Assembly (NCBI GenBank): GCA_037127955.1 | Contig: JBAXXI010000001.1 | Location: 9,217-73,216 of the forward strand | From: Candidatus Berkelbacteria bacterium | Lineage (GTDB): Bacteria; Patescibacteriota; UBA1384; UBA12157 | Length of the DNA stretch: 64,000 nt | Reading direction: 5' to 3' | Part shown: positions 1 to 29,560 of the stretch, one piece after another | Numbering within the stretch: the stretch's first letter is position 1 | Layout: each line of letters starts with the position of its first letter | Translations under genes and position numbers: made by a program | Notes under the pieces: generated by a model | Seen by the model: only the letters and a program-made list of their open reading frames with translations | What the model was told of the DNA's origin: nothing | Databases searched by the model: none

Positions 1-302
1 AACTTATTATTTCCGGTTTTTGCCTTAAGACCTGCCAAGCCGCGACCTATACATAAATCACAAGGAGCAAAATTGAGATCGCCTACCGGTGCTCTCACGC
101 TCATTAAAACGTCACCTTTATTTGCAAGTTTTGTAACCTTTTTTGTATATGTGTCGAAGCTAGGATATAAAATACCGAATGTTCTGTTTCCTTGTAAAAA
201 TGGAACACCTTCAAAATCAGAATAATAAATAGATTCTGGCGATTGCCCTTGCACTACAAGAGCAACATTTGAAAGCTTGGTTTTGAAACCCACTCTAGTC
301 AT
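1..302 (-). CDS. hsdS: Type I restriction-modification specificity subunit HsdS, N-terminal part; gene continues past the window start
   Basis: Manual translation of the minus strand from the ATG at 302..300 gives MTRVGFKTKLSNVALVVQGQSPESIYYSDFEGVPFLQGNRTFGIL...LMSVRAPVGDLNF. The QGQSP...PFLQG and SVRAPVG blocks are typical of HsdS target-recognition domains. The ATG overlaps the hsdM stop (ATGACTAG). It is not in the ORF track because it is under 60 aa and partial. Confidence 0.75.
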   Translation of the reverse strand, partial: MTRVGFKTKLSNVALVVQGQSPESIYYSDFEGVPFLQGNRTFGILYPSFDTYTKKVTKLANKGDVLMSVRAPVGDLNFAPCDLCIGRGLAGLKAKTGNNK

Positions 303-1905
303 ATTTTAATCCATTTAACTGTTTTTTAATTTCAGATTCTAGATTTTTTGAGTCGGTGAAAAGCTCATTCAAATTCTTTTTATAGTCATCGATCTTACTA
401 GAAAATTGTTCTGGTGTGATATCTACATACTCAATTTTGACATCAAAATATTGCCCGGCTGATAACGAATAATTCTTTTCTTTAATCTCGCTATATTCAA
501 TAACAACAGAAAAATTTTCGATTGGCTCTTTAGTCTTGAAAGCAGAAATAATTTTTGATTCATCTTCACAGCTAAGTAGAGTTTTCTGATTTTTGCCATC
601 TTTTACTTTTTTCCCAAGTTTCGAAGCATCGACTAGCACAACTTTATCAGTGTTAGTTTTGTCGATAAAAAGAATGGACACATTCGTACCGGTAGTCGCA
701 AATATATTCGATGGCATCGAAACAACACCCTTAAGCCATTTCTTTTCTACTAATTTCTCACGAATCTTTTTTTCAATCCCGCTCTGCGCGGTAATAAAGC
801 CGGTAGGCACAACAATGGCCGCTTTTCCGGTATCATTCAGGCTCCGCATAATGTGTTGAATAAACAGTAAATAAATTGACATTTTGTCTTTGTCTTTATT
901 TGGGGTATTCGGTATGCCGGCAAAAAAACGCTCATTAAACTGTGGCAGTGATTCTAGATCATCACGCCAATCCGAGAAGTCCAATTTGAAAGGCGGATTG
1001 CTTACAATGAAATCCATCTTCTGTGGATGGCGATTGTTAAGAATTGTGTTACCTTGCACAATATTGTTGATACTATGGCTGAGACCATTTAGAATCAGGT
1101 TTAACCGTAAAAGGTTTGATGATTTCTGGCTGATGTCTTGGCTGTAAATCGTGCTTTTATCTGTGCCGATTTTACTCGCAATATTCATAAGCAGTGTTCC
1201 AGAGCCGGCACCTGGGTCGTAAACCTTCACATTTGTTGGCTTTGAATTACCTACAAGAATTTCCGCCATAACTTTAGCGACTGAATGAGGGGTGAAATAT
1301 TCGGCATATTTGCCGCCGCCGTCCTTGTTATAGTCCTTAATCATATACTCAAAAAGCGTTGAGAAGAAATCGAAGCCAGCTGAAAAAATGTCATCAAAGT
1401 TAAACTTGCTGTCGGCCAGTTTGTTGATAATGGATTTTGCAACAGCGTTGTGTTTTGAACGATCGGAAACAGCACTCTGTATGAGCTGTTCTTCAAACAA
1501 ACGAATCTCTGTTTTGCCATCTGTATGAACTGAGAAAACTGCGGAGTTAGTTACAGCAATATCGTTGAGCGTATCGTCAAATTTTTTAGCAAAATCAGAG
1601 TCTTCTTGATGTTTAAAAAGATAAGATAGCAGATGTTCCGGTTTTAAATGGGCTGAATTGTTTCCAAGTTTCATTAATAACAAACCGTATTCATTATTAC
1701 TCAGCTTTTTTAAGTCATCATATGTTTGAAGCGATGAATCAATTTTTGAAACTTCGTAAATGAATCTATCGTTTAAAAACTTGTAGAGGAAACATTGCGT
1801 TACAATTTTATATTCATTCGCATCACCACCAAGACCATTGTGAGCACAAATAGCCTTTATATCATCAACTAATTGTTTCGTTTTATTGTTATACTCTGTT
1901 TCCAT
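295..1905 (-). CDS. hsdM: Type I restriction-modification DNA methyltransferase subunit HsdM (N6-adenine)
   Basis: 536 aa. SAM-binding motif DPGAGSGTLL, catalytic NPPF (FIVSNPPFKLDFSDW), and a HsdM-type N-terminal domain. Start overlaps the hsdR stop (TAATG at 1905). Confidence 0.92.
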   Translation of the reverse strand: METEYNNKTKQLVDDIKAICAHNGLGGDANEYKIVTQCFLYKFLNDRFIYEVSKIDSSLQTYDDLKKLSNNEYGLLLMKLGNNSAHLKPEHLLSYLFKHQEDSDFAKKFDDTLNDIAVTNSAVFSVHTDGKTEIRLFEEQLIQSAVSDRSKHNAVAKSIINKLADSKFNFDDIFSAGFDFFSTLFEYMIKDYNKDGGGKYAEYFTPHSVAKVMAEILVGNSKPTNVKVYDPGAGSGTLLMNIASKIGTDKSTIYSQDISQKSSNLLRLNLILNGLSHSINNIVQGNTILNNRHPQKMDFIVSNPPFKLDFSDWRDDLESLPQFNERFFAGIPNTPNKDKDKMSIYLLFIQHIMRSLNDTGKAAIVVPTGFITAQSGIEKKIREKLVEKKWLKGVVSMPSNIFATTGTNVSILFIDKTNTDKVVLVDASKLGKKVKDGKNQKTLLSCEDESKIISAFKTKEPIENFSVVIEYSEIKEKNYSLSAGQYFDVKIEYVDITPEQFSSKIDDYKKNLNELFTDSKNLESEIKKQLNGLKYD

Positions 1906-4900
1906 TAGTTTTCTCCTTTATATTCGCTAGTATACTCATCAGCCAGAATATCTCTTATCCGGCCTGCATTTGCGACATCAAGAACTGGGACTTGTGAATT
2001 CTCAAAACTATCGACTGTAGCCTGACCGATAAAATTAGAGAAATAACCATCATTATCAACCAAGTTTTTGTTTTTACCAAGTTTCTCGGCTATCAATTTT
2101 TTAATATCTGATAGCACATCGAACAAAGGCTGATTTTGGTTGACACGACCAGTCGGTTCAAGCAATTTGAAGGTGCGGGCATACTTACGGTCACCGTCAA
2201 ATTTCTCAAGTACGACTTGATTCTTGCGGTTTAGCTCTCGGATTCGATCGTAAATGTGTTTTAACTCGGTTGAAGCATATTCCATCTTTTCTTTATTGCC
2301 ACTAGCTTCACTTTCATTGTATTCAGAAAGCAGGCGAGTGAATTCCTCGTATAAGGTTACCCATTCTGGGTCTTTCTGATTATAGTTCCTATCCAGTTCC
2401 AAGCGAGTGTTCCGGGCAATCTCCTGTAAATCATTTGCCAACAGCTTTAACTCTTCTTCGCCAGTCTTAGTAAATTCAAAAATTACTCCCTCGATAGCAG
2501 TATTGAGTAGTTCCTTACTATTAATATCATTTGTAGCATCCTTTAAATTGAGGAGCTTCAAGCGATTACTAACTTCGGTAAGCAATTTGGCAATGAGTTT
2601 AAAATCAATTTTTTCAAGGATTTCTGTGTAACCTAGCAGCCTCGCAATATTATATATATCGCGTGCCGACTCTAGCGATTTCTTTAATTGATTTATTGTT
2701 TCTTTGTCGTTAATTGCACTTATTTGACGACTGAAGGTTTCAAGATTATCTGTTGAGAATTCGGAAAGCATACTTAAAACAATAGCGATCTCTTCATCAA
2801 TTTCAGACTTACTCATAAAAAGTGAACCAAAAATGTTGTTTGGATCATCGTTTTCATCCATACCTTCGCTATATTCACGATTCAATTCGTCAAAGTAGGC
2901 CTGGTTGGTGACTTCGAACTCTTTGCTGATATCAGCAAAATCCACTACATAGCCAATGCGAAAATCACGGTATGGTCGGTTGACGCGTGTGAGTGTCTGT
3001 AATAGATTATGGGCGCGTATTTTTCTACCGAGATAGAGTTTCTTAAGTCTTGGAGCATCAAAACCGGTTAGAAGCATTGAATATACAAACAATAAATCCA
3101 GTTTACCGTCTTTAAAGTCTTTGATTTCCGTTTCGCGTGTTTCTTTATCATCTTCATCATGGAGAATAAGGGCTGCTTTAAGACCATGTTCACTAGATTT
3201 TTCATTAAACTGTCGAAACATTTCGCGCGCTTGATCAGAGCTATCTGCTACAACCATACCCCCAATAGTTTTGTCCCCGAAACGAATGCGAGAATTTTTG
3301 AAATCCTTAATAATGTATTCGAGCATTGGATCGACAAAGTTACTATGAGATCGTATTTCTTTACGATCAATCGAACCGAGTTTAGTTTCTATTTCATGAA
3401 CAATCTCGTTTAACTTGGCCTTGTAACTCGTTTCAATTTCTTCGCGCAGTAGCTTTAAAGTATATCCATCTTTGATCGAATTATTATAATAATATTTATG
3501 AATGTAGTTACCAAAAATATTGCGAGTAGTTCTTACATCTTGCTTATCACTTAGCTCTTCGTCATCTTCTTTATGTTCACCGTAAACTATTAGCGGTGTA
3601 CCGGTAAGCGCAATTTTAACAGCTGATTTGTCGGAATTATATAGATTAGCGAGAAATGATCCTTTTGGATCATAGCTTCGATGGGCTTCATCGATAAAAA
3701 ATATACGTTGAACATTAATATCATAGCCAGAATTGTTAAATGCGGTAGTGTCATCTTTAAATTTTTGTATATTCACGACCGTAATACCGGCTGTAGTAGT
3801 GTTTGAGGCAAAATCACGCACTAGTGATTCTTTGTTGTCGATAGTCTGTACTTCAAGACCGCGCTTTCTAAATTCATTGCGAGCTTGTTTTGCTAAATCT
3901 AGGCGGTCAACTATAAAATAGAATTTTGAAATAACACCTTTTTTGGCGTAGTAATCGGTCAAATATTTAACACCATAGTAACTCAAAGCGGTTTTTCCAG
4001 ATCCTTGGGTGTGCCATATAATACCGCGATCATTGCCTGCGTCCAAATAGCGTGCAATAGCTTTTGTTGCAAAAAATTGCGGGTAGCGCATAATGTGCTT
4101 TTGAATAACCGTCTCGCCGGTTATTTCGTCAATCTCATCAACATACGCGATACCATATCGAAGAATCATGATGAGACGTTTCTTTTCGAATAAAGAGCTA
4201 ATAACTCGATTGGTTGGAGCATCAATATCTTTATTACTGATAAACTCTGGCGAGTGTTTTATAACTTCGAGATTAGTGTCTCTTAATACAAAATCTTCGA
4301 CTACTTCGTCGAGGTTGTGAATTTCATCAATAATCTCGCTCTTTCGTTCTTCGCGAAAATTGTTAAACTTTGCACGAGAGTTCTTGGCAGTAGTCGCGTA
4401 GAATGCACCCTGAAGCTGATCGGCAGTTGTATCGTCGTATTCCATATTGTTTGAAAATACGAGCAATTGGGTAATATTGATAAACTTACGAAACTTTTCG
4501 TTTGCAAACCGCATGTTGATACGGTCACGCTCAGCCTTGATACCTTCTGGGTTGTTTGGTTTCTTCACCTCTATGAAAGCCAGCGGCAAACCGTTAATAA
4601 AGATTGTGATATCTGGTCGGAACTCATCTTCTCCATTTTTATTGGCGAGTTCGGTCGTAACAAGATATGAGTTTTTTTCTGGATTTTCAAAATCTACTAG
4701 CTTATAATTTCCTCCGTCCGTGCCGATGAGTTTTTTGTAAAATTCTCGCCCCAAGTCATCATTGCCAAGAGATTGCTTTACATCAGAAAAAAATCCATCG
4801 AACTCACCATTTTGCGAGTCTGTGATGTTATTTATTTTATTAAACTGATCACGAAACTCATTCACAATAATACTTGTTTCGGGATCAATATTATAATTTT

Positions 4901-5000
4901 TGTCTTTCAGAGAGAAGTATTTGTAGCCTAAACGAGTAAAATGAAGTAACGATGGAATCTTTACTCTAGAATCCTCTGAAAATGAATTATCTTTTGCCAT
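1905..5000 (-). CDS. hsdR: Type I restriction enzyme R subunit HsdR (SF2 helicase-nuclease)
   Basis: 1031 aa. Walker A HTQGSGKTALS, DEAH box (FFIDEAHRS), an N-terminal nuclease region and a long C-terminal helical domain. It sits directly upstream of hsdM with a 1-nt overlap. Confidence 0.92.
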   Translation of the reverse strand: MAKDNSFSEDSRVKIPSLLHFTRLGYKYFSLKDKNYNIDPETSIIVNEFRDQFNKINNITDSQNGEFDGFFSDVKQSLGNDDLGREFYKKLIGTDGGNYKLVDFENPEKNSYLVTTELANKNGEDEFRPDITIFINGLPLAFIEVKKPNNPEGIKAERDRINMRFANEKFRKFINITQLLVFSNNMEYDDTTADQLQGAFYATTAKNSRAKFNNFREERKSEIIDEIHNLDEVVEDFVLRDTNLEVIKHSPEFISNKDIDAPTNRVISSLFEKKRLIMILRYGIAYVDEIDEITGETVIQKHIMRYPQFFATKAIARYLDAGNDRGIIWHTQGSGKTALSYYGVKYLTDYYAKKGVISKFYFIVDRLDLAKQARNEFRKRGLEVQTIDNKESLVRDFASNTTTAGITVVNIQKFKDDTTAFNNSGYDINVQRIFFIDEAHRSYDPKGSFLANLYNSDKSAVKIALTGTPLIVYGEHKEDDEELSDKQDVRTTRNIFGNYIHKYYYNNSIKDGYTLKLLREEIETSYKAKLNEIVHEIETKLGSIDRKEIRSHSNFVDPMLEYIIKDFKNSRIRFGDKTIGGMVVADSSDQAREMFRQFNEKSSEHGLKAALILHDEDDKETRETEIKDFKDGKLDLLFVYSMLLTGFDAPRLKKLYLGRKIRAHNLLQTLTRVNRPYRDFRIGYVVDFADISKEFEVTNQAYFDELNREYSEGMDENDDPNNIFGSLFMSKSEIDEEIAIVLSMLSEFSTDNLETFSRQISAINDKETINQLKKSLESARDIYNIARLLGYTEILEKIDFKLIAKLLTEVSNRLKLLNLKDATNDINSKELLNTAIEGVIFEFTKTGEEELKLLANDLQEIARNTRLELDRNYNQKDPEWVTLYEEFTRLLSEYNESEASGNKEKMEYASTELKHIYDRIRELNRKNQVVLEKFDGDRKYARTFKLLEPTGRVNQNQPLFDVLSDIKKLIAEKLGKNKNLVDNDGYFSNFIGQATVDSFENSQVPVLDVANAGRIRDILADEYTSEYKGEN

Positions 5001-5002
5001 TT

Positions 5003-7105
5003 TTATTCCTCACTTATTTCGTCTGATTCCCTATTTTTTTGAAAAGATTGTTCTATTAAAGTCATCAAATAATCAATTTGAGTTTCGGAATTAATTTTTG
5101 CTTCTACATTGCCATTACCCCAATGGCCAAGACCAGTTACATCATAAGACATCTTCTCCGGATCGATAATTTCGTTATAATCCATGTTCATACAAACCTT
5201 TAATTGGTTTTTCTGCGGTATAATGTCGACAAAATTCGTACTATTTTTGTAAGCAATATACTTGGCTTTTATAACCTCTTTTACAGAAGAATCAATGTTT
5301 AATATACGCTGTCTCAGTTTATTAAAAAGATCCAAAATATTTCCTTGCAAATATTCCTTATAAATATCTAGTGTATATATTTGTTCCGTTTCATCAGTAT
5401 CGACTTGCTTATATTTTTGAATAATTTCACTTGGCAAGGATGGGGCAATCCAAATTTTCACCGCTTTCACCGCGAGTTCTTTACCTCTTTTGGTAATCTC
5501 TTCTTCGTTCCATGACGGCAAATTTGCTAATGAATAATTCAATCTAATAGGGCTATCTTTGAATCCTCCCTCCATCGATTGTTTATCCGCAAAAGCTTTG
5601 TCGCTCAGTTCGGGATTATAGCCTGTCAATGTTAGGTTTCCGATCGTATGAAGATACTTCTCCTGAATCTCTTTCCAATTATCACCCAAATTGGCCTGCC
5701 ACTCGCTTGATAACTTCGGATTTTGTGGCATTATATGTTCAATTGTGAAGGTATCGACAGATACCTTTTCTTTTCGGCCAAAATTTTCTAATTTGTCTAA
5801 AAGATAATTGCGTCTAGAAAAGTTATATACATCTTTTATAAGAAGTTCGCTCATAAATTCTTCGTCATTTGGGAATCTCCGGTAGGAATCTTTCGCCAGC
5901 AATACCGCCTTAACGCTTTCTAAATAATTATCTCGATCAATAAACTTGGCCAAATTGCCGAAAGTTTTATTCATTGAATTTGTTGGGATACCACAAACTC
6001 CACGTCTAAACACATACGATTCGACTAAACGCAATATCTCGATTAGCTCTTCTTTTATAATTCTATTTTGATCATAATCTTCTAAGACCACCATTAGAAA
6101 TGGATACGCAACATCAACCTTTAGCGTATTAATGTCTTTAATCGTACCCCTTATTTCAGTATCGTTAACTCTCTCAAATGCAAGTTCAACAAAACGCTTG
6201 GAGTGATGATAGACATCGGCAACTATCTCGGAAATCGTTAATTTACAACTACTAGCGTAAACTTTAAAATTTTCATAAATTTGGTTTATATTAGGAATTC
6301 TTCCAGTTTTGATTGTTAAATAATCGCGCATAAATCTATCAAAAAGAACTGAATATTCAGCGTGACCAAAACTTTGTTCCATCGGGTACCATGACTTTTC
6401 ATACACTTCCACTTGATCATCTTGTTCAAGTCCCATTAAAACATAATTACGAATTAAATCAGCTTGGGATAAATCTAGTCCAGTTGAATTGAGACTTTCA
6501 AATATTAATTGTGGATTGTCTCTATCCCTATCAAGAGCTATATCCACGATAATTAGCTTGCTGATTCCCTTGTATAATTCTTCAACATCAATATTCAATT
6601 CTTTTATTTTGTTTATAAAAAAATTATAATTTTCATTTATTCTGCCAGATTGATTTTCTACAGCGCTTCTACCTTCAAGCAAATTAATAAAAGCTTCTCT
6701 GTCGCTTTTGGTTAACATTAATCTGTATTTTAGGTCGCCTTCTTCTTCACTATTAATCAAATAGTAGTTATTTATTTTTCTTTTTGACATATCCGAGGTT
6801 TCATCTTGATCTGCGATAGAATCACGGATTGCCATCATCAATAAAGAAAGGGTGGTTAGCCTTTGCTGGCCGTCAATCACTAGAAGTTTAGAAACAGCTG
6901 CGACCTGATATAGTCCATTTTCAATATAAACGATCGATCCAATAAAATGACCGCCGGTTTCTTCACTTTTTACCGCGCGCAAGATGTCGCTCCAGAGTTC
7001 ATCGCATTGTTTAGTCGTCCAGCTATAGGTTCTCTGGTAAATAGGTATAATAAATTGTTTCGTGCCTTGTAAAAATTTCGTTAGACTTGTTTCTACTGCT
7101 TTCAT
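5003..7105 (-). CDS. DUF262/DUF1524 fusion protein (GmrSD / BrxU / SspE-like type IV modification-dependent nuclease family)
   Basis: 700 aa. N-terminal DUF262 motifs IPIYQRTYSW and DGQQRLTT. C-terminal DUF1524 His-Me-finger motif FTIEHIMPQNP ... NLTLTGYNPELSDKAF. The stop lies 2 nt from the hsdR ATG. Confidence 0.8.
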   Translation of the reverse strand: MKAVETSLTKFLQGTKQFIIPIYQRTYSWTTKQCDELWSDILRAVKSEETGGHFIGSIVYIENGLYQVAAVSKLLVIDGQQRLTTLSLLMMAIRDSIADQDETSDMSKRKINNYYLINSEEEGDLKYRLMLTKSDREAFINLLEGRSAVENQSGRINENYNFFINKIKELNIDVEELYKGISKLIIVDIALDRDRDNPQLIFESLNSTGLDLSQADLIRNYVLMGLEQDDQVEVYEKSWYPMEQSFGHAEYSVLFDRFMRDYLTIKTGRIPNINQIYENFKVYASSCKLTISEIVADVYHHSKRFVELAFERVNDTEIRGTIKDINTLKVDVAYPFLMVVLEDYDQNRIIKEELIEILRLVESYVFRRGVCGIPTNSMNKTFGNLAKFIDRDNYLESVKAVLLAKDSYRRFPNDEEFMSELLIKDVYNFSRRNYLLDKLENFGRKEKVSVDTFTIEHIMPQNPKLSSEWQANLGDNWKEIQEKYLHTIGNLTLTGYNPELSDKAFADKQSMEGGFKDSPIRLNYSLANLPSWNEEEITKRGKELAVKAVKIWIAPSLPSEIIQKYKQVDTDETEQIYTLDIYKEYLQGNILDLFNKLRQRILNIDSSVKEVIKAKYIAYKNSTNFVDIIPQKNQLKVCMNMDYNEIIDPEKMSYDVTGLGHWGNGNVEAKINSETQIDYLMTLIEQSFQKNRESDEISEE

Positions 7106-7108: not shown

Positions 7109-7408
7109 TTATTCCTCAATTTTCGCCCGATTAATAATATTTTCAATGACCCAATATTTATAGCCAGCAATCTCTAAGTATTTATATTCTTTGTCATAAA
7201 ATGGCTTAATGTAACCATTTGAATCTATTTCTCTTACGAACATTTTTATTTCGTCTGATTTGTCTGGATAATCATCGATAACAACATATTCATGCGGAAT
7301 TTCCGGCATGGTTTTGGCAAATGTCCAAGCTAAATGAGAAATTAGTTTTGTAATTTCTTTTTGCAAATTCATTAGCTTTATTTTACGCTTCTGGAGGGAT
7401 TTATTCAA
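7109..7408 (-). CDS. Hypothetical 99-aa protein, first gene of the defense operon
   Basis: ORF track entry with an unrecognised conserved-looking core (WTFAKTMPEIPHEYVVIDDYPDKSDEI...GYKYWVIENI). It ends 3 nt before the DUF262/DUF1524 start codon, so it is likely co-transcribed. An alternative start at MNLQKE is 12 codons downstream. Confidence 0.5.
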   Translation of the reverse strand: MNKSLQKRKIKLMNLQKEITKLISHLAWTFAKTMPEIPHEYVVIDDYPDKSDEIKMFVREIDSNGYIKPFYDKEYKYLEIAGYKYWVIENIINRAKIEE

Positions 7409-7493: not shown

Positions 7494-7712
7494 TTAATCT
7501 CGTCTTTCTTCATTTAGATTGAAACTAACATTTTTATTGTTTATTTGAATTCGGTTTTTGGTTTGCAACTCATTAAAAGCCTGCTGGAAGGTCATTCGTT
7601 TTTCTTTAACCATTCTTTCCAATGTAAAATAAAGAGCCAGCGGCACAGTGTAGCCATCTGCTTTCATTTTTTTATACCATTCGGCAACAGTTTTAAATTC
7701 ATTAATATCCAT
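7494..7712 (-). CDS. Hypothetical small protein (72 aa)
   Basis: ORF track only. Sits in the defense-island gap between the 99-aa gene and the PLD-like gene. No recognisable motif. Confidence 0.3.
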   Translation of the reverse strand: MDINEFKTVAEWYKKMKADGYTVPLALYFTLERMVKEKRMTFQQAFNELQTKNRIQINNKNVSFNLNEERRD

Positions 7713-7796: not shown

Positions 7797-8522
7797 TTAT
7801 TTGTAAAGAAAACTTATCAAGCCGAAAACAAATTTTGCTCCTTTCAACGATACTATTAATACTTTAACGATGGCAAATAACCACCACGCGAGAAACGGAA
7901 CAACTACTCCCAAAAAGAACAATTTGATCTTAGCCAGTTTATTCTCTTCAAGATTCTTGGCCATATTGCGATATAGCCGCTCATACTGAAACTTGTAGGC
8001 TTCAGCCAGCTTTTTGCTTAGCCCCAGATAAGACATAGTTTCTTGCACCAATATCTCATCCGAGATTCGCCTCATCATTTCACGACTTTGTCTTTGCGAA
8101 AGAATATTTAAGCTCCCTTCCCAAAGTATTTCGCGATCAATAATGGCTAATTTTTCATGAACAAATCCTGGCAGATGAGTAATATGGGCGCCGGACTCTT
8201 CATAATCCTTAAGTGCACAAGAAATTTCCGCTTTCATGAAATAATCATGTTCTTCAAGCGGTCTGGTAAAAATAAAAACCGGTATGTTTCTTTTCCGAAG
8301 TTCAATAAGCGTCCGTCTGAAAAATTCCGATCGAAACTTTGAAACAAACGGGCTGTAAATAACCACTTCTTTTTTGGCGGCCAACATATCTTTAACGAAT
8401 GCCTGATAAAAACTCTTTTCATTAAAAAGATTGCCTTTTTGCATTTCTTTCAATTTCTTGGCATCAACTTCATTTTGGATATTTGTAAGATGCTGCCTAT
8501 ATGCCGGTGATTGTCGTAACAT
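7797..8522 (-). CDS. PLD-superfamily single-HKD protein (Nuc/BfiI-like nuclease fold) with a C-terminal transmembrane anchor
   Basis: 241 aa. Canonical HKD motif HEKLAIIDREILWEGSLN (HxKxxxxDx6GSxN). Only one HKD copy, implying a dimer like Nuc. The C-terminal hydrophobic helix is LFFLGVVVPFLAWWLFAIVKVLIVSL. Confidence 0.7.
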   Translation of the reverse strand: MLRQSPAYRQHLTNIQNEVDAKKLKEMQKGNLFNEKSFYQAFVKDMLAAKKEVVIYSPFVSKFRSEFFRRTLIELRKRNIPVFIFTRPLEEHDYFMKAEISCALKDYEESGAHITHLPGFVHEKLAIIDREILWEGSLNILSQRQSREMMRRISDEILVQETMSYLGLSKKLAEAYKFQYERLYRNMAKNLEENKLAKIKLFFLGVVVPFLAWWLFAIVKVLIVSLKGAKFVFGLISFLYK

Positions 8523-8597: not shown

Positions 8598-8816
8598 ATG
8601 AACGAAAAAGAACTTGAAGAAATGTTTGCCAACCCGTTTTATGCTGTTAATATTTTGCCGTCACTTTGCTTGGAACATGAGCCGATGGTCTCCAAGGAAA
8701 CTTGGGTCAAGGCTAACGCTAAGATGATTGACGAAATCGGCAAAGTAGAATGGCTAAAACGACTTCTTGATGTCTTGGAATCCGGCGGCCCGCAGAGCGA
8801 TCAAACGGCTGAATAG
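8598..8816 (+). CDS. Hypothetical small protein (72 aa)
   Basis: ORF track. An upstream TATACT -10-like element at 8562..8567. No recognisable domain. Confidence 0.3.
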   Translation: MNEKELEEMFANPFYAVNILPSLCLEHEPMVSKETWVKANAKMIDEIGKVEWLKRLLDVLESGGPQSDQTAE

Positions 8817-8870: not shown

Positions 8871-9086
8871 ATGGGTACTGATAATTCTCTAAAAATGAAT
8901 CAAACAATCGGCGAACAGTTCAAAGCAGCTAGGGAAAAACTTCACCTGACCCAATTGGAGGTAGCCGAAAAAGCTGAAATAAGCACTAATTACTACGCGC
9001 AGATGGAACGCGATGAAGTTAATCCCTCAGTTGAAAAGGTGCGAGAAGTTAAAGAAGTTTTAAAAATAAAAGAGATCAAGATATAA
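8871..9086 (+). CDS. XRE-family helix-turn-helix transcriptional regulator
   Basis: 71 aa. LHLTQLEVAEKAEISTNYYAQMERDEVNPSVEKV matches the Cro/C1 HTH pattern. Followed by a hairpin plus T-run at 9208..9227. Confidence 0.7.
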   Translation: MGTDNSLKMNQTIGEQFKAAREKLHLTQLEVAEKAEISTNYYAQMERDEVNPSVEKVREVKEVLKIKEIKI

Positions 9087-16757: not shown

Positions 16758-18953
16758 ATGAAAAAACAAATTCAAATCATTGGTATGCACTGTACCAGTT
16801 GTGCCGCCAACATCGAAAATAGTTTACTTAAAATACCGGGCGTCATCGATGCTGACGTTAATTATGCTTCAGAAAAAGCCACGATTGATGTTAAAGAAGA
16901 TTTTTCTGACGATAACACTCTAATTAAAACTATTGTAAATGGTGGCTATAAAGCCGTATTGATAAATAAAAAAAATGATAATCAAATGGATCACATGCAC
17001 CACGATCACGACAAAATGGTTTGGCGAAACTTTCTTTGGGCCGCCAGCCTTAGCTTGCCATTAATCATATTTATGTTTTTACCGATGAATCCTTACATTA
17101 GAATCATCTCCTTGATTTTAGCCACGCCAGTTCAGTTTATTATTGGCGCCAGCTTTTACAAAGGCATGTGGCAAGGATTAAAAAATAAAACTTTCAATAT
17201 GGATTCTTTGGTAGCTATCGGCACTTCGGCTGCCTACTTTTTCTCTATTTATAATTTTTTCCATGACGGTGCGCTTTACTTTGAAACCTCCGCCCTTTTA
17301 ATTACATTTGTCTTACTTGGTAAATTCCTTGAAGCCAAGGCTAAAGCTCGGACAAATGATTCAGTTAAAAAACTGGTTGGTTTACAGGCCAAAACGGCCC
17401 GAATTATCACAAATGGCAAAATTCAAGATATCCCGATTGAGGAAGTAAAAATTGGTGATATAATTTTAGTCAGACCGGGCGAAAAAGTCCCAGTCGACGG
17501 CGTCATTACCAAAGGCAGTTCGACTCTTGATGAATCAATGGTGACTGGCGAAAGTTTACCAGTTGATAAAACTATTGGCAATAATGTCATAGGTGCGACA
17601 ATAAACGAAACTGGCTCATTTGAATTTCGCGCCGAAAAAGTTGGCAGCGACACATTAATCGCTCAAATCATCAAATTTGTTGAGGAGGCGCAAGGGGCTA
17701 AAGCGCCAATTCAAGCTTTTGCCGACAAGGTGTCAAGTTGGTTTGTTCCAGCAGTTATTGTTATTGCGATTTTAACTTTTTGTATTTGGTTTTTTGCACT
17801 TAATATTGGTTTTGAAAAATCTCTTTTGTTTGCCACGGCCGTCTTAGTCATTGCTTGCCCTTGCGCCTTGGGCCTAGCTACACCAACCGCGATCATGGTT
17901 GGGGTTGGACTGGGTGCTAAATACGGTATTTTAATTAAAGGTGGGGAACCGCTCGAAATCGCCCAAAAGGTAAACACCATAGTTTTTGATAAAACTGGAA
18001 CACTGACTGAGGGAAAATTAGTCGTAACTGATATTGAGTTAAATCCAAAATCCGAATTACGAAATCCGAATGAAATACTAAAAATAGCTGCATCGCTCGA
18101 ATTTGGATCTGAACACCCGATTGCCGAGGCAATTATCAATAAAGCCAAAAAAGATAATATCAAATTAGTTGAAGTTACAAATTTCAAGGCAATTGCCGGT
18201 CATGGCATTACCGGCGAAATTGATGATAAAAAATATTATTTAGGTAATCGAAAATTAATGATAGATAATAAAATTAAAATTGATGATTTTAATGATAAAA
18301 TCGAAGCATTAGAAAGCCAAGGCAAGACCGTTATGATTTTAGCAAGTGATACTATCATTGGCCTAATCGCGGTGGCCGATACCATTAAAACTACAACCAA
18401 GCAGGCAATTGCTAAATTAAGATCGATAGGCTTAACCATTTACATGATGACTGGTGATAATGCAAGGACCGCCAATGCCATTGCTAAAGAAATCGGTATT
18501 AATCATATTTTGGCCGAAATTTTACCAGAACAAAAGGCGCAAGAAATTAAAAAAATACAAAATGGAAATCATATTGTCGCCATGGTAGGAGATGGTATTA
18601 ATGACGCACCGGCCCTGGCCCAAGCCGATCTAGGTATTGCTATGGGCTCTGGCACCGATGTCGCCCTTGAAAACGGCCAAATAGTTATTATAAAAAATGA
18701 CTTAATAAACATAATTACGGCGATCGAACTTTCGCGCAAAACATTTTCTAAAGTTAAACAAAATCTTTTCTTTGCCCTGTTTTACAACACTTTAGGTATC
18801 CCAATCGCCGCTGGCGCTTTTGCGGGTCTCGGACTGGTTTTACGACCGGAATTTGCCGGTCTCGCCATGGCCCTAAGCTCTATATCGGTCGTGACTAGTT
18901 CCATTCTTTTAAAATCTTTTAAGCCAAAGAATACTTTAATTGACAAGATATGA
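16758..18953 (+). CDS. copA: Copper-translocating P1B-type ATPase
   Basis: N-terminal HMA domain [14 protein letters not shown]6 CPC motif ([12 protein letters not shown]), DKTGTLT phosphorylation site, GDGINDAP hinge. Confidence 0.92.
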
Positions 18954-18986
18954 TATGATATATTTAAATTCAATAGAAAGGATTTT

Positions 18987-19289
18987 ATGAGTTTCGAAGA
19001 AAGAATTATTAAAGTTCCCGGGCAAGATAAAGGTAAAATCTTTATATTTGCCTTAAGCACCTGCGTATGGTGCAAGAAAACTAAACAACTACTAAATGAT
19101 TTAGGCGTAATGTACGATTACATTGATGTTGATTTAGTTTCAGGCAATGCTGAACAAGAGTTAATGGATGAATTTAAAAAATACACAAATAATATTTCTT
19201 TTCCAACTATCATCATCGAAGATGGTCAAGAAGTTATTACCGGTTTTGACGAAGCTAGAATAAAGGAACTATTTGAAAATGGAAAATAA
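18987..19289 (+). CDS. Glutaredoxin-like thioredoxin-fold protein (CxxC)
   Basis: 100 aa. ALSTCVWCKKTKQLL active-site CxxC. Overlaps the next gene by 17 nt. Confidence 0.7.
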   Translation: MSFEERIIKVPGQDKGKIFIFALSTCVWCKKTKQLLNDLGVMYDYIDVDLVSGNAEQELMDEFKKYTNNISFPTIIIEDGQEVITGFDEARIKELFENGK

Positions 19290-19566
19290 ACCAAAATCCT
19301 TACTTAATCCAGACAAATCATTTACCGACGAGGTCTTAAAAAACCTTAAAGTCAATGTAGAGCGCTACGGTTATGCGGCTTGCCCTTGCAGATTGGCTTC
19401 TGGCAAAAAAACTGAAGATGCCGATATTATTTGCCCATGCGAATATCGCGGCCAAGATGTGGCCGAATATGACACTTGTTTTTGCGGACTTTATGTCAGC
19501 CAAAAAGCCATCGACGAAAATATTCCCGTCAAACCAATCCCAGATCGCCGATTGGATAAAATTTAA
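19273..19566 (+). CDS. Ferredoxin:thioredoxin reductase catalytic-subunit-like [4Fe-4S] protein
   Basis: 97 aa with CPC-x16-CPC-x12-CFC (CPCRLASG...ICPCEYRG...CFCGLY). This matches the FTR catalytic CPC/CPC/CHC pattern with His replaced by Phe. Confidence 0.7.
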   Translation: MKMENKPKSLLNPDKSFTDEVLKNLKVNVERYGYAACPCRLASGKKTEDADIICPCEYRGQDVAEYDTCFCGLYVSQKAIDENIPVKPIPDRRLDKI

Positions 19567-19572
19567 AATATC

Positions 19573-19609
19573 AAAAAAGCCCGGTATTTAATCGTACCGG
19601 GCTTTTTTA
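19573..19609. terminator. Bidirectional Rho-independent terminator between the copper operon and bipA
   Basis: aaaaaa-GCCCGGTA-tttaatcg-TACCGGGC-tttttt. A perfect 8-bp GC-rich stem flanked by A-run and T-run. Confidence 0.85.
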
Positions 19610-19615
19610 TTTCAA

Positions 19616-21430
19616 TTATTTTCGATTTTTAGCACGCGCACTGCCATTTAAAATCTTTTTTCGAAGTCGAATACTTTTTGGTGTTGCCTCTAAAAGTTCA
19701 TCGTCTTCCAAAAAGTCTAAAGATTGCTCAAGAGATAAAATGGTTGGCGGCGTTAAAATAACTGAGAAATCTGAGCTCGATGCACGAACGTTAGTTTGCT
19801 TCTTTTCTTTTGCGACATTAATTTCAATATCTTCTTCACGAGAATTAATACCAATAATCATACCTTCATAAACTTCGGTTTGTGGCGGAATAAAGGTAAT
19901 ACCGCGACCCTGAGCAATATCTAAACCATAAGTAACAGCCTTGCCCGGACCAGAAGCGATTAAAACACCGTTTCTTAATTTTGGAATATCGGCACCAACA
20001 GGATCAAACCTTAAAAACATGGAGTTCATAATAGCTGTACCTTTAGTTAAAGTCAAAAGCTGATTACGAAGTCCTAATAAACCACGAGTTGAAATTTCAA
20101 ACAAAATACGAGTCGAGCCATCAGCGTTTTCATCTTGACTAAGCATAATACCTTTACGACGACCGACTTCAGCCACCACCGGACCAACCTTATCGGTATC
20201 AACATCAATCGTCAATTCCTCAACTGGCTCAGAAAGAACGCCGTCAATCATTTTATTGATAACTTGAGGCTTAGAAACTTGCATTTCAAAACCCTCACGA
20301 CGAAGCGTTTCAATGAAAACCGAAAGATGAAGCTCACCACGACCTGACAAAATAAATTCACCGTCTTTTTCTTCTAATTTTAAAGCCACATTAGTTTGTA
20401 ATTCTTTTTTAATTCGATCTAAAATCTGGCGACCAGTCACAAATTGACCTTCACGACCAGCAAACGGTGAGGTATTGGCTGAAAGCGCCATTCTTAAAGT
20501 CGGCTCTTCAATTTTAATAGTTGGCAAAGCTTCAGGATTTTGCGCATCAGCAATCGTATTACCAATACCAGCGTTTTTTACACCGGTAATAGAAACGATA
20601 TCGCCTGAAGTCGCTTGAGGTAATTCAATTCTTTTTAAACCCTGACTTGAATAAACTTTTTCAATTCTGGCGGTTTCTTTCTCACCGTCTTTATTGATCA
20701 GAACAACACTTAAGCCAGGCTTGGCAATGCCGCGATTAATACGACCGATTGCATATTTGCCCTGAAAATTATCCCAATCAAGTGCGCTGACCAACATCTG
20801 GAAAGGTTCGTCATCAGCTTCTTTTGGTGCTGGCACGTATTCTAAAATAGCTTCGAAAATACAAGTTAAATCGGCTGGTTCAGTTGGATCGACCGGCATT
20901 TCATGCCAGGCTTTACCTTCACGACCAATGGCATAATAAACCGGAAATTCTAATTGATCGTCGGTTGTAGCCAAATCTAAAAACAAATCATGGATTTTAT
21001 TAATCGTACTTGGAATATCAGCGTCACGTTTGTCAATTTTATTAATAACGACTATCAGTCTTAAACCAAGTTCCATCGCTTTTTTAAGTACAAATTTAGT
21101 CTGTGGCATTGGCCCTTCTTGAGCATCAACCACTAAAATGGCGCCATCGGCCATATTAAGAGTTCGTTCGACTTCTCCACCAAAATCAGCATGTCCTGGA
21201 GTGTCGATAATATTAATTTTTGTATCATTAAAATTTACAGCTGTATTTTTAGCTAAAATTGTAATACCGCGTTCGCGCTCTTGATCATTTGAATCCATAA
21301 TCAAAACCTGAGACATTTCTGCCTCATTATCACGGAAAGTTTTAGATTGTTTTAATAGCCCATCGACTAGAGTAGTTTTACCATGGTCAACGTGAGCAAT
21401 AATCGCAACGTTTCTTATGTTCATAAACAC
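19616..21430 (-). CDS. typA: Translational GTPase BipA/TypA
   Basis: 604 aa. G-domain AIIAHVDHGKTTLVD, DTPGHADF, NKID. EF-G-like domain order with the BipA-specific C-terminal domain. Confidence 0.92.
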   Translation of the reverse strand: MFMNIRNVAIIAHVDHGKTTLVDGLLKQSKTFRDNEAEMSQVLIMDSNDQERERGITILAKNTAVNFNDTKINIIDTPGHADFGGEVERTLNMADGAILVVDAQEGPMPQTKFVLKKAMELGLRLIVVINKIDKRDADIPSTINKIHDLFLDLATTDDQLEFPVYYAIGREGKAWHEMPVDPTEPADLTCIFEAILEYVPAPKEADDEPFQMLVSALDWDNFQGKYAIGRINRGIAKPGLSVVLINKDGEKETARIEKVYSSQGLKRIELPQATSGDIVSITGVKNAGIGNTIADAQNPEALPTIKIEEPTLRMALSANTSPFAGREGQFVTGRQILDRIKKELQTNVALKLEEKDGEFILSGRGELHLSVFIETLRREGFEMQVSKPQVINKMIDGVLSEPVEELTIDVDTDKVGPVVAEVGRRKGIMLSQDENADGSTRILFEISTRGLLGLRNQLLTLTKGTAIMNSMFLRFDPVGADIPKLRNGVLIASGPGKAVTYGLDIAQGRGITFIPPQTEVYEGMIIGINSREEDIEINVAKEKKQTNVRASSSDFSVILTPPTILSLEQSLDFLEDDELLEATPKSIRLRKKILNGSARAKNRK

Positions 21431-23203: not shown

Positions 23204-23280
23204 TGGGGTGGCTGACCGGACTCGGACCGGCGACAGCTTGGACCACAACCAAGTGCTCTACCAACTGAGCTACAGCCACC
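23204..23280 (-). tRNA. tRNA-His (anticodon GTG) with encoded G-1 and 3' CCA
   Basis: Manual fold: G-1, acceptor GTGGCTG/CAGCCAC, D-arm GCTC-AGTTGGTA-GAGC, anticodon arm CTTGG-TTGTGGT-CCAAG, T-arm GCCGG-TCCGAGT-CCGGT, discriminator C, CCA. Confidence 0.85.
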
Positions 23281-23342
23281 ATACGATATGACCTAAATAT
23301 CTATTAAATCATACCATAAATTTACGTTTTTATCAAGAAATA

Positions 23343-24368
23343 CTAAATATTATTTGACCGATGGTAAATATAATTTTCAGTTTCTTCGACAATTTTTTTC
23401 ATGGTTTTCAAAGCTTCGACAGGATACTCACCAATTGTAGTTTCATTTGAAAGCATCACGGCATCGGTTCCGTCAAAAACCGCATTAGCAATATCAGTCA
23501 CTTCGGCACGAGTTGGAAAAGCACAATGAGTCATAGTCGAAAGCATATGAGTAGCAGTTACAACCGGTGTACCATCATAATTGCAACGTTTAATGATTTG
23601 TTTTTGAATAATCGGCAATCTTTCGATTGGCATTTCCACACCCAAATCACCGCGAGCCACCATAATTCCATCGGATAAAGTAATGATCGAATCAATATTA
23701 TCTAGCGCTACAGCAGTTTCAATCTTGCACATAATTTTAGCTTTGCTTTTACCCATCAAACTCTTCAAAAGCTTAACATCTTCCACGGTTTGAACAAACG
23801 AAATAGCAATCCACTCTGGTTCTTTGGTTAAGATAAACTCTAAATCGGCTCGGTCTTTATCGGTCAAGCTTGAAGTTGTAGTCACGGTTAAAGGCAAATT
23901 AACACCTTTTTTAGGATAGATTTCACCACCATGCAAAACTTTGCAAGTAATTTTATGATTTTCCACACTCAAAACTATCAATTCGATCGTACCATCATCA
24001 ATCAAAATTAAATCTTTTGGCTTAACATCAGTATGAATATATGGATCCATAATCATGATTTCTTTTGATTTACAATCATTACAAACAGAGCTGGTCAAAA
24101 CAACGATATCGCCATCGTGAACCTTTCTTGGCGCGTTTTCAAAAGGGGCCGTTCTGATTTTTGGACCCTGTAAATCACAAAGAATAGCCACTTTTTTATC
24201 GAGTTTTTTAGCCCATTTTCGAATATTATCAATTCTCTTGGCATGATTTTCATGACTATCGTGAGAAAAGTTAAGTCTGGCAATATTCATGCCATTCTCG
24301 ATTAACTCTTTGATTTTTTCTTCTGATTCAGTATTTGGACCAATTGTGCAAATAATTTTTGTACGCAT
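23343..24368 (-). CDS. pyk: Pyruvate kinase, short form lacking the C-terminal regulatory domain
   Basis: Real start MRTKIICTIGP at 24368. RLNFSHDSHENH motif. About 341 aa, covering PK domains A and B only. Confidence 0.85.
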   Translation of the reverse strand: MRTKIICTIGPNTESEEKIKELIENGMNIARLNFSHDSHENHAKRIDNIRKWAKKLDKKVAILCDLQGPKIRTAPFENAPRKVHDGDIVVLTSSVCNDCKSKEIMIMDPYIHTDVKPKDLILIDDGTIELIVLSVENHKITCKVLHGGEIYPKKGVNLPLTVTTTSSLTDKDRADLEFILTKEPEWIAISFVQTVEDVKLLKSLMGKSKAKIMCKIETAVALDNIDSIITLSDGIMVARGDLGVEMPIERLPIIQKQIIKRCNYDGTPVVTATHMLSTMTHCAFPTRAEVTDIANAVFDGTDAVMLSNETTIGEYPVEALKTMKKIVEETENYIYHRSNNI

Positions 24369-24438
24369 ATTTACCTTTCTCAATATTAACCTTATGTGAT
24401 ACAAAAAATCAGCCAATGCTGTTTCTTTGTAAATTTTA

Positions 24439-24515
24439 TGGTGCCCCAGGAGGGATTCGAACCCCCGACCTAAACGTTAGAACCGTCCCGCTCTAATCCA
24501 CTGAGCTACTGGGGC
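24439..24515 (-). tRNA. tRNA-Arg (anticodon TCT), CCA encoded
   Basis: Acceptor GCCCCAG/CTGGGGC, D-arm GCTC-AGTGGATTA-GAGC, anticodon arm GGACG-GTTCTAA-CGTTT (two G-U pairs, G32), T-arm GGGGG-TTCGAAT-CCCTC, A73, CCA. Confidence 0.65.
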
Positions 24516-24519
24516 ATTT

Positions 24520-24593
24520 TGGAGCGGGTGAAGAGAATCGAACTCTCGTAGCAAGTTTGGAAAACTTGTGCTCTACCATTGAGCTACACCCGC
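24520..24593 (-). tRNA. tRNA-Gly (anticodon TCC), CCA encoded
   Basis: Acceptor GCGGGTG/CACCCGC, anticodon arm CAAGT-TTTCCAA-ACTTG, T-loop TTCGATT, U73, CCA. Confidence 0.85.
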
Positions 24594-24626
24594 CCGCACA
24601 CTTCATATATTTCTATTTAATTTTAA

Positions 24627-24705
<79 letters not shown>

Positions 24706-24750
24706 ACACTTTTATATTATACCTTAAAAAACTAAAAAAATCAACAATTT

Positions 24751-26244
24751 TTAAACAGCCTTCTTTTCGGTTACTCGAAAAGTTAAATATTTCCCTAGCA
24801 TCAAACGAGTTTGTGCATCAATTGCTGGAAAACTTGAGAATAAAACTGCTTGAACTGGCACTAAAAACCACTGTAAAACCATTTCGGCCATTTTACTTTT
24901 ACCATATTGCGCTGGTCGAGGCGGCAACAACAATAACGAAATCCAAACCGAAACCACAATACCAGCCCAGGTAAACGACATTAAGGTTCTGATTAAAACT
25001 AACAAATTCGCACCTAACACTGTATGACTAAACCCTGGACCAAACAATAATGGAAACCAAGCCATGATGGCAATAAAAATCGAAGCAGTTGCCCAAGAAT
25101 AATTACCCTCTAATAATCGATAAATCTTTACTGTCTTATCCCAAAATGCAATTTTTCTGTTTTTATATGATTCAATTACGACGTATGGCACATGTTCTAC
25201 ACCATAAGCCCAACGTTGTTTTTGCAAATACTGATTCTTGATCGTCCCCCAAAAATCATGAGCCAAAACTGCATCCATATACACTGGTATAAAAAGTGGC
25301 ACAGCCTTATGATCGCCATCAAAGGTAAAATAAGCTCGCCAAAATTGCCTTGAATCCTCATTAACCACACCAACTTCCCAATAATTAATCTGAATCAACA
25401 TTTTCATACTCATGGCATGCGTCGCAAAATTGACTAAACGCCATGGCCGACTTGCCTCAATCATTTGCCAAAAAGAGTTACCAAAGGCAATAATCCTACA
25501 AATCGCTGGCGCCTGCCAAATATTATTTGAATAAAGCGTAATTGGCTGGAAGCTACGTCGATCACGATTTGGCTCAATACAATAATTATAAGATAAACAT
25601 GCCAAGTATTGACGATGAATCCTAGTATCGGCATCGGCTGTTGTGACCACGGCATTATCGTAAGCAATACTTTTTTCATCTAAAAATAATCTTAATTTTT
25701 TAGCCGCCCAGGTCACATTTGCACCCTTTGCCTTATGCTCGCCAATAATTCCATCCGGGTGTTCGGTTACCAAAAACTTATAAAATTTACTACCGTATTT
25801 ATCCACCAATCTCTTAGCAATTTGACGAGCATTAGCCTTATCACGCTCCTCTGTTGCCAAAACCAAAATGACTTTTTTTAAATTATAATGCGAATCGGCT
25901 AGAGCCTGAATTGAAGTGTCTAGGGTCTCAAAACTTTCTTTATAAGTAGCCAAAATCACCACTTGATAAATCTCCCGCCAGTCCTTAATCACCTCTGTCG
26001 GCTTAACCGATTCCATTCGCCTAACCCAGTCGACATGAAGATCGTGTTTTAAATTTCGATAACCGATAATTAAATTCACGCCAATCACCAAAGATCTGTA
26101 CATCCAATAAATATCTAAAAGCAAAATGTACGTGGCCACAACTACCGGAATGAAAAAAGATAGTACGATTGGTGCAATAAAAGAAAACCATGTCGCCGCA
26201 CCTGGCAAAATTTCCAATGATCGCCATAAAAATGTTTTCTTCAT
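24751..26244 (-). CDS. Family 2 glycosyltransferase, membrane-integrated (processive-type topology)
   Basis: 497 aa. N-terminal TM hairpin, GT-A core (VILATYKE...ADADTRI D-x-D-like, QxxRW-like QKQRWAYG) and C-terminal TM helices. Confidence 0.65.
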   Translation of the reverse strand: MKKTFLWRSLEILPGAATWFSFIAPIVLSFFIPVVVATYILLLDIYWMYRSLVIGVNLIIGYRNLKHDLHVDWVRRMESVKPTEVIKDWREIYQVVILATYKESFETLDTSIQALADSHYNLKKVILVLATEERDKANARQIAKRLVDKYGSKFYKFLVTEHPDGIIGEHKAKGANVTWAAKKLRLFLDEKSIAYDNAVVTTADADTRIHRQYLACLSYNYCIEPNRDRRSFQPITLYSNNIWQAPAICRIIAFGNSFWQMIEASRPWRLVNFATHAMSMKMLIQINYWEVGVVNEDSRQFWRAYFTFDGDHKAVPLFIPVYMDAVLAHDFWGTIKNQYLQKQRWAYGVEHVPYVVIESYKNRKIAFWDKTVKIYRLLEGNYSWATASIFIAIMAWFPLLFGPGFSHTVLGANLLVLIRTLMSFTWAGIVVSVWISLLLLPPRPAQYGKSKMAEMVLQWFLVPVQAVLFSSFPAIDAQTRLMLGKYLTFRVTEKKAV

Positions 26245-26277
26245 AGATTCAGCCTCGATTTACCACTAAATCAAACC

Positions 26278-26607: not shown

Positions 26608-26618
26608 ATTTTTTTATT

Positions 26619-26692: not shown

Positions 26693-26717
26693 ATTTTTTT
26701 CATCCTACAATTTATTT

Positions 26718-29553: not shown

Positions 29554-29560
29554 ACCCCAA

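Follow-up and report, generated by a model that had tools for sequence, protein, structure and literature searches.

A small protein encoded ahead of a GmrSD-type nuclease in a Berkelbacteria genome belongs to a large, unnamed domain family associated with enzymes of DNA restriction and modification

Genes and features at the locus

The window, that is, the whole 64,000-nt stretch of a Candidatus Berkelbacteria contig that was analysed here, carries close to its left end a small protein-coding gene on the minus strand (7109..7372, 87 aa; ATG at 7372-7370, TAA at 7111-7109), which is followed directly by the gene of a GmrSD-type type IV restriction nuclease of 700 aa (5003..7105, minus strand). 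The nuclease is composed of a GmrSD_N/DUF262 domain (residues 9-222), a GmrSD_C/DUF1524 domain (412-545) and a DUF5655 domain (583-690). In the same operon as the small gene, there follow the genes of the type I restriction subunit HsdR (1905..5000, minus strand) and the type I methyltransferase HsdM (295..1905, minus strand) and, beyond these, the first 100 codons of HsdS (3..302, minus strand), a gene that passes the window end and is complete in locus L001. A GmrSD enzyme embedded in a type I restriction-modification (R-M) locus is already well known (PMC4619093); what is new here is an undescribed and widely distributed accessory domain in a type IV module.

Past the left end of the window, the operon in locus L001 goes on beyond hsdS (17071-20264) and encodes a UvrD-type helicase (619 aa) and a DUF2779 protein, and in another locus (L029) the pair of small-protein and GmrSD genes is followed by a DUF2779/Cas4-like gene. 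DUF2779 may, by these gene orders, be a further recurrent companion of loci that pair the small protein with GmrSD.

Upstream of the small gene and on the same strand lies the gene of a PLD-like (PLDc_2) protein of 241 aa (7797..8522, minus strand), the last ~45 residues of which are strongly hydrophobic, suggestive of a membrane anchor, and which has weak PADLOC matches to MkoC, MkoB and DrmC. The related locus L011 also has a PLDc_2 gene in this position, as the second gene upstream of its small gene; given this kept position, the PLDc_2 gene may belong to the same defence island, and we treat it as a candidate member of the module only. Divergent from the PLD gene are an unannotated ORF of 72 aa (8598-8816, plus strand) and the gene of an XRE-type HTH_3 protein of 71 aa (8871..9086, plus strand), present also in L011, which is by its family a more conventional candidate for the transcriptional controller of the island than the small gene. 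Another ORF of 72 aa (7494-7712, minus strand) is located between the PLD gene and the small gene; the public assembly annotates it as a gene, it matches no family, and the equivalent slot of L011 holds an unrelated 229-aa gene. Elsewhere in the window, seven tRNA genes (His, Arg, Gly, Pro, Thr, Gly, Asp) form a loose and ordinary cluster (23204-29938, minus strand), no Rfam family besides the tRNAs scored above threshold, and the island and the DNA flanking it are even in G+C content (0.32-0.39).

Start site, translational coupling and selective constraint of the small gene

The earlier note had described a 99-aa protein ending 3 nt before the DUF262/DUF1524 gene. The corresponding ORF (7109..7408, minus strand) is indeed present, measures 99 aa if counted from a TTG codon and contains the motifs that were quoted for it, and the protein carries the motifs FAKTMPEIPHEY, YKYL, YKYW and IINRAK. 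It is likely, however, that translation starts at ATG 7372 and yields 87 aa, rather than at TTG 7408; a public protein from a Candidatus Berkelbacteria MAG (P0001) is 87 aa long, begins at ATG 7372 and is 100% identical to the small protein, and a start equivalent to this ATG is found in nearly all homologues. The 36-nt segment 5' of the ATG (7373..7408, minus strand) could represent either a short promoter/leader or a 12-codon extension read from the TTG, and the former appears to be more likely. Specifically, a promoter-like site, TTGAAT-17-TAAAAT (7408-7380; called by consensus match only), overlaps the supposed extension, ends 7 nt before the ATG and is kept in L011, and the DNA homology between the window and L011 starts exactly here and is near-perfect across the 36 nt. 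The promoter-like site, together with this homology, favors the ATG start and a dedicated promoter, and the small gene probably heads the operon, being transcribed from a promoter of its own. An autoregulatory operator was also considered and set aside, as the 150 nt upstream of 11 related genes share no inverted repeat or motif.

At the other end of the small gene, the spacing reported before was confirmed: the TAA (7111-7109) and the ATG of the GmrSD gene (7105-7103) are separated by a gap of 3 nt, both genes are in one frame, and the junction reads ...ATT GAG GAA TAA AAT ATG... The Shine-Dalgarno sequence of the GmrSD gene, GAGGA (7113..7117, minus strand), lies within the two codons that precede the stop of the small gene, GAG GAA (7117-7112), with 7 nt between it (7117-7113) and the GmrSD ATG at 7105. 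The 3-nt gap and the position of the Shine-Dalgarno sequence inside the upstream gene indicate that the small gene and the nuclease gene are translationally coupled.

Within the close subfamily of the small gene, pN ranges between 0.09 and 0.25 while pS ranges between 0.62 and 1.0 (i.e., is saturated), and dN/dS does not exceed 0.16 wherever it is computable. Based on the low pN relative to the saturated pS, the 54 relatives (~85 aa, chiefly from Patescibacteria) recovered by the first homology search, and an AlphaFold2 model with a pLDDT of 92.3, the small gene is real and under strong purifying selection.

A very large family with conserved polar and aromatic residues

The statement of the earlier note that the small protein falls into no recognised family was borne out by Pfam-A, NCBIfam, PHROGs and PADLOC, none of which provided a match; the phage members of the family have no PHROG match, and two family profiles searched against PDB sequences matched no chain. 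An exhaustive profile search of 1.84 billion representatives recovered 3,117 clusters (at 50% identity) with E<=1e-3, and 1,333 with E<=1e-10. About three quarters of the best matches are stand-alone proteins of 85-130 aa, with the remainder being longer. We define this family here as the 'FAKTMP-PHEY-YKYW-INR' domain family, and the window protein matches its HMM with an E-value of 1.8e-40. A tblastn search of four family members against deposited phage genomes matched nothing, and literature searches on GmrSD architecture, IbrA/IbrB, DUF3440, the ParB-CTPase fold, Menshen and BREX brought up no description of the domain. Judged by these searches, the family is a very large, unnamed domain family that is absent from the libraries and literature consulted.

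The AlphaFold2 model predicts an alpha+beta fold (alpha-beta-beta-alpha-beta4), with two helices on an antiparallel sheet, for which Foldseek found no neighbour in the PDB (best E 0.2, TM<0.41). As had been noted from the sequence before, there is no helix-turn-helix (HTH) signature: none is seen in the model, and no HTH family is matched at E<=1 in Pfam or NCBIfam. Across diverse members of the family, residues H27, Y73, W74, N81 and R82 are invariant (71/71), residues A19, M22, P26, Y29, G53 and Y65 are conserved in >=90% of the same 71 members, and the window protein has all of the invariant and near-invariant residues. Such a pattern would point to a ligand-binding or active site and not to a mere protein-protein adaptor.

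With a pI of 5.2 and a net charge of -4, the window protein is acidic; across the family, the pI is mixed (median 8.1, 37% of the members below 7). The simple DNA-binding model is tempered by these values, and a uniformly basic DNA-binding protein was rejected based on the mixed distribution. Similarly, the small protein was not found to be a paralogue of the DUF5655 domain of the nuclease, as hhalign gave the family profile a probability of 0.3% against the DUF5655 profile.

Close relatives precede unrelated nucleases

In each of the approximately ten non-redundant loci of relatives that share 60-76% identity with the small protein, the next gene downstream encodes a nuclease, and the gap between the two genes is -11 to +39 nt. 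The partner belongs to the GmrSD family in six of these loci (the window/L001, L011, L014, L124, L127 and L128), is a 308-aa PD-(D/E)XK protein of the DUF8426/NucS_C type in three (L005, L009 and L130), and is a DUF4268 protein in one (L025), where an Eco57I/MmeI-type enzyme is encoded next. The GmrSD partners found directly downstream of small-protein genes cover four GmrSD subtypes. A domain common to the different partners was considered and rejected, since BLASTP among the GmrSD, DUF8426/NucS_C and DUF4268 partners shows no similarity. In both the tree and the identity matrix of the close small proteins, the partner types are interspersed, and the small proteins share 65-76% identity whether their partners are related or not. 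That is, as far as these comparisons of sequences go, the small protein swaps partners without co-divergence. In the CPR subfamily, the small protein is always paired with a nuclease, and no modification genes are found nearby.

Neighbourhoods and fusions across the wider family

For the family at large, 201 loci were fetched and reduced to 97 non-redundant groups at 90% identity, a sample that is biased, having been retrieved with narrow sequence patterns. At least one of the censused enzymes of nuclease or modification type occurs within three genes of the domain, or fused to it, in 51 of the 97 loci, and roughly half of the loci are without an annotated neighbour of either type. By local profiles, the census comprised ParB_N (23 loci), PAPS reductase (21), GNAT (15), the GmrSD family (12), N6/N4 methylase-like proteins (7), DUF8426/NucS (4), EEP (4) and DUF4268 (2). 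In the 12 loci of the GmrSD family, the gene is within two genes of the domain or fused to it, and in 7 of them it is directly downstream. Among the 56 non-redundant downstream genes on the same strand, the most frequent were GNAT (8), GmrSD_N (7), PAPS reductase (4), class-I methyltransferase (3) and NucS_C/YhcG_C (3), with one each of RNase_T, PDDEXK_3, DUF4268, PLDc_2, EEP, HEPN and HNH. Many of the partners have the ParB/Srx fold (ParB_N in 23 and GmrSD in 12 of the 97 loci), which may be meaningful even if it is not universal.

The domain is also fused to a GmrSD-like enzyme, to EEP and PDDEXK_4 nucleases, to methyltransferases of the Methyltransf_25 type, to NUDIX and to AdoMet_dc, and further to GNAT, a tyrosine integrase and Bro-N; tandem copies of the domain are found as well. 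The family is coupled non-randomly, through neighbouring genes and through fusions, to DNA-cutting and DNA-modifying enzymes. The earlier note had specified a common housekeeping domain, scattered without linkage to DUF262/DUF1524 genes, as the outcome that would speak against its view, and this is not what the family looks like. Family members are also carried by plasmids of Rhizobium, Desulfotalea and Butyrivibrio, where all are annotated as hypothetical (the Butyrivibrio member adjoins McrBC, WYL and HIRAN genes), and some members are located beside integrases.

On viral contigs, a recurrent cluster of overlapping genes encodes a ParB_N protein (~180 aa), the small protein, a GNAT protein (~128 aa), a PAPS_reduct+DUF3440 protein (~390 aa) and another ParB_N protein (~218 aa). 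In other phage loci (L056/L058 at 4594-5864, L146, L147) and other fused members, the domain comes immediately after an S-adenosylmethionine decarboxylase-like (AdoMet_dc) gene or forms one protein with it, beside genes for an N6/N4 methylase-like protein and a PAPS reductase; the company of AdoMet_dc, methylase and PAPS reductase hints at a SAM-derived DNA modification. A set of 46 near-identical viral contigs of 20-130 kb (L076-L122; IMG/VR, mostly sample 3300045988) encodes a 281-aa protein that has the domain at its N-terminus and a C-terminal half assigned to no family, and in each contig the next gene downstream encodes ~180 aa; a related protein (L072) has a weak Methyltransf_25 match.

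The tyrosine integrase (L165, 565-1995) matches lambda Int/XerA over residues ~100-385 and has the domain at its C-terminus (400-475). This arrangement was seen in two contigs and is a candidate fusion or the result of a lost stop codon. We had considered the integrase as a pointer to arm-type DNA binding; since its domain is C-terminal to the catalytic domain, it carries no information on binding of that type, and the idea was set aside.

GmrSD enzymes with and without the domain

The fusion to GmrSD-like enzymes is represented by single ORFs in two MAGs (L039 and L040), and the cluster concerned (P0324) holds 20 member sequences. The L039 enzyme (715 aa) is a bona fide DUF262 protein with the motifs DGQQRLTTL and IHHIFPQ (His-Me-like), and has the small-protein domain at its C-terminus (residues 626-711), which in the window enzyme is occupied by DUF5655; the L040 enzyme is a GmrSD-like fusion of 822 aa. 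Of the 120 clusters of homologues closest to the fused enzyme (72-100% identity), 119 are without the domain, and a 608-aa relative with 87% identity to it has no copy of the domain within 4 kb. A common GmrSD fusion was thus rejected, the fusion being rare among the closest homologue clusters of the fused enzyme itself.

The nuclease of the window has at least 8,000 homologues at E<=1e-30, and its best non-identical homologues (57-61% identity) are from Planctomycetota, Bacillota, cyanobacteria and an archaeon. The architecture of GmrSD plus DUF5655 is found at full length, with ~56-61% identity, in Planctomycetota, Bacillota, cyanobacteria, CPR and a Methanococcoides MAG (P0205-P0323), and its conservation across these phyla indicates a wide horizontal spread of one architecture. 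None of the top 120 homologues of the window nuclease contains the small-protein domain. Further, no copy of the small gene was detected within 4 kb, even at permissive thresholds, of orthologues with 57-61% identity in three contexts, i.e., an hsdM-hsdS-GmrSD-hsdR locus, a solitary gene in Tautonia, and Paenibacillus polymyxa. Accordingly, the small gene is not an obligate partner of this GmrSD clade; it is an optional addition, and any contribution it makes is auxiliary.

The view of the earlier note that the small protein is a candidate new accessory component of GmrSD-like modules can therefore be retained in part. The link to GmrSD is non-random (12 of the 97 loci and one true fusion type), but it is not specific, as relatives with 60-76% identity precede unrelated nucleases and the family is found with methyltransferases, EEP, PD-(D/E)XK, NUDIX and PAPS-reductase/ParB proteins.

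Discussion

Type IV (modification-dependent) restriction enzymes combine readers and nucleases as exchangeable parts, and how enzymes of the GmrSD type choose their targets is only partly understood. In prokaryotes and phages, the family behaves as an accessory, movable between partners, of enzymes that act on DNA in this way. The small gene is accordingly an accessory that restriction and modification enzymes can gain or do without, and is most likely a plug-in module for recognition or control, as opposed to a classical regulator or antitoxin. The family-level finding is solid; the mechanism is one that we infer. The role that we tentatively favor, with a little less than even confidence, is that of a trans-acting, optional subunit that binds a nucleic-acid feature or nucleotide-like ligand and thereby targets or licenses the nuclease. 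Specifically, the small protein would act in trans as an optional extra subunit of the GmrSD-type modification-dependent nuclease, mirroring the role that the same domain would have in cis when fused to GmrSD-like, EEP, PD-(D/E)XK and methyltransferase enzymes. Residues H27, Y29, Y65, Y73, W74, N81, R82 and, usually, K20 would form a polar/aromatic cluster lining a pocket, the pocket would bind the nucleic-acid feature or nucleotide-like ligand (e.g., a modified base), and binding would target or license the attached enzyme. In such a scheme, the small protein would be a recruited sensor or specificity module akin to the lineage-specific sensor domains of other ParB-DUF262 systems.

It is known that GmrSD enzymes bear variable C-terminal accessory domains (PMC4619093, PMC5714182) and that ParB-DUF262 systems repeatedly recruit extra sensor domains (PMC12065111). 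The pattern observed here, i.e., optional, sporadic, repeatedly acquired and independent of the partner, fits both the GmrSD C-terminal domains and the Menshen sensor domains (PMC4619093, PMC5714182, PMC12065111). Several points speak against the role as a targeting or licensing subunit: the acidic window protein and the mixed pI of the family, the rarity of the GmrSD fusion, the nuclease orthologues that do without the small gene, and the loci (about half) with no annotated nuclease or modification gene nearby. In addition, the invariant His/Tyr/Asn/Arg set could equally well be a catalytic site. The earlier note had offered a regulator, an immunity or antitoxin partner, and a sensor as options. 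The sensor survives; the other two are weakened by the results discussed below, and we infer that the small protein is neither needed for the nuclease to exist safely in the cell nor an HTH controller.

A more specific version, which we regard as unlikely, sees in the domain a new fold for reading a hypermodification of phage DNA or the precursor of one. Phages would use it to guide modification enzymes, and bacteria would have captured the reader and added it, either as a fusion or as a subunit of its own, to GmrSD, PD-(D/E)XK and EEP nucleases, so directing these at DNA with that modification. The modification read in this manner could be the product of the phage ParB-GNAT-PAPS-reductase (IbrA/IbrB-like) clusters.

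Alternatively, the small protein might be a gate at the protein level that holds the nuclease inactive until a phage cue arrives, in the manner of an antitoxin, or it might have a role akin to that of T4 IPI*. A first position in the operon, coupled to the nuclease, would ensure that an inhibitor is made first, the window protein is small and acidic, and the phage members lie within DNA-modification clusters, where an inhibitor of type IV restriction would be useful. We nonetheless consider this explanation quite unlikely, because no copy is found within 4 kb of nuclease orthologues that share 57-61% identity with the window enzyme and come from Planctomycetota, Bacillota and a type I R-M context, the domain is present in 0 of the 120 top nuclease homologues, and small proteins that are 65-76% identical serve unrelated nucleases with no sign of co-divergence. 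Consistent with this assessment, an antidote would be of no use to the methyltransferases and NUDIX proteins with which the domain is fused, and there is no match in sequence or fold to the PDB, which includes inhibitor structures. It is the closest GmrSD orthologues without the small gene, together with the swapping of partners without co-divergence, that weaken the antitoxin option.

It is also rather improbable that the protein is a small enzyme or cofactor-binding protein of a DNA-modification pathway (acting on a nucleotide, a cofactor of the SAM/CoA type or DNA) that merely shares the operon with the nuclease. The domain has only 85 residues and matches no known catalytic fold, a binding module would more typically be found, as this domain is, joined to enzymes that are complete in themselves and differ widely in chemistry, and the CPR subfamily always occurs with a nuclease and has no modification genes nearby. 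These observations have to be weighed against the invariant His, Tyr, Trp, Asn and Arg, which are typical of active or phosphate-binding sites, and against the partners, many of which depend on cofactors that contain adenosine (SAM methyltransferases, AdoMet decarboxylase-like proteins, PAPS-reductase/PP-loop ATPases, GNAT, NUDIX and the NTP-dependent ParB/DUF262 fold).

A transcriptional controller, i.e., an analogue of C proteins with a non-HTH DNA-binding fold that times the downstream nuclease genes, is highly unlikely, even though the small gene has the classical position of a C gene (directly upstream of the restriction gene and overlapping its signals) and is, like C proteins, exchangeable between unrelated nucleases. 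The protein shows neither an HTH nor another known DNA-binding fold, the regions upstream of the gene in 11 related loci have no palindrome or motif in common (in several of these loci the gene abuts the preceding one), the phage genes are located mid-operon, the domain is fused to enzymes, and an XRE HTH gene of the conventional kind, kept in L011, is already part of the island. The regulator option loses ground on the same points, namely no HTH, no conserved operator, fusion to enzymes and a place inside operons. Finally, a hitch-hiking gene of mobile elements, unrelated in function to its neighbours and simply frequent in defence and counter-defence islands, is the least likely of all: roughly half of the 97 loci lack a recognised nuclease or modification neighbour, and members are found on plasmids and beside integrases, but every close relative is tightly coupled to a nuclease (gaps of -11 to +39 nt), fusions arose repeatedly and independently, and the GmrSD family accounts for 7 of the 56 downstream genes, far above chance (the background rate being an estimate of a few copies per genome).

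The family comprises thousands of sequence clusters, is unnamed and is without a solved structure or a detectable structural relative. Should the domain be a recognition or licensing module, it would represent a new reader fold for the restriction and anti-restriction toolkit, provide a handle on the phage PAPS-reductase/ParB modification pathway, and serve as an annotation marker for defence and counter-defence loci, including those of CPR bacteria, where such loci are poorly described.

Comparison with known systems

Type II antitoxins differ from the small protein in that the nuclease of the latter is also found without the small gene and partner-specific co-evolution is absent. Like R-M controller (C) proteins, the small protein is encoded immediately upstream of a restriction gene, is coupled to it and is exchangeable between systems; unlike C proteins, however, the small protein has no HTH and no C-box-like operator, is fused to enzymes, and is found inside operons. 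T4 IPI*, a phage inhibitor of GmrSD, is also small, tied to GmrSD and found in phages that modify their DNA, but the two proteins share no homology, the small protein is encoded by the host beside the nuclease, its domain is elsewhere fused to such a nuclease, and its family serves many enzymes.

DndE is a small DNA-binding protein of the phosphorothioation cluster that includes DndB (ParB-like) and DndC (PAPS-reductase-like). In the phage clusters, the small protein is likewise encoded between ParB-like and PAPS-reductase-like genes (the Dnd side of this comparison is from general knowledge); unlike DndE, it matches no PDB chain, although the PDB includes DndE, and the phage clusters are IbrA/IbrB-like (DUF3440). 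With the modified-base readers of type IV enzymes (SRA, EVE/ASCH/PUA-like, YTH, winged helix) the small protein shares a modular association with many nuclease folds, and its conserved aromatic and polar residues could form a pocket as in these readers. It has no fold or sequence similarity to SRA, PUA/EVE/ASCH or YTH, and its predicted fold has no barrel.

Further parallels are offered by the variable C-terminal domains of the GmrSD family, namely DUF4268, DUF4357, DUF5655, AlbA_2 and DNA_binding_1 (PMC4619093, PMC5714182), and by the sensor domains that the Menshen NsnA (ParB-DUF262) proteins have recruited at their N-terminus (PMC12065111). Unlike DUF5655, DUF4268 and DUF4357, to which it has no homology (no Pfam match; hhalign probability of 0.3% against DUF5655), the small-protein domain is usually encoded by a separate gene, and it serves non-DUF262 nucleases, methyltransferases and phage clusters as well. 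Like the GmrSD C-terminal domains and the NsnA sensor domains, it is an optional, lineage-specific add-on to a DUF262 nuclease that is sporadic and was gained independently several times, and in the L039 and L040 fusions it occupies the same C-terminal position as the GmrSD accessory domains.
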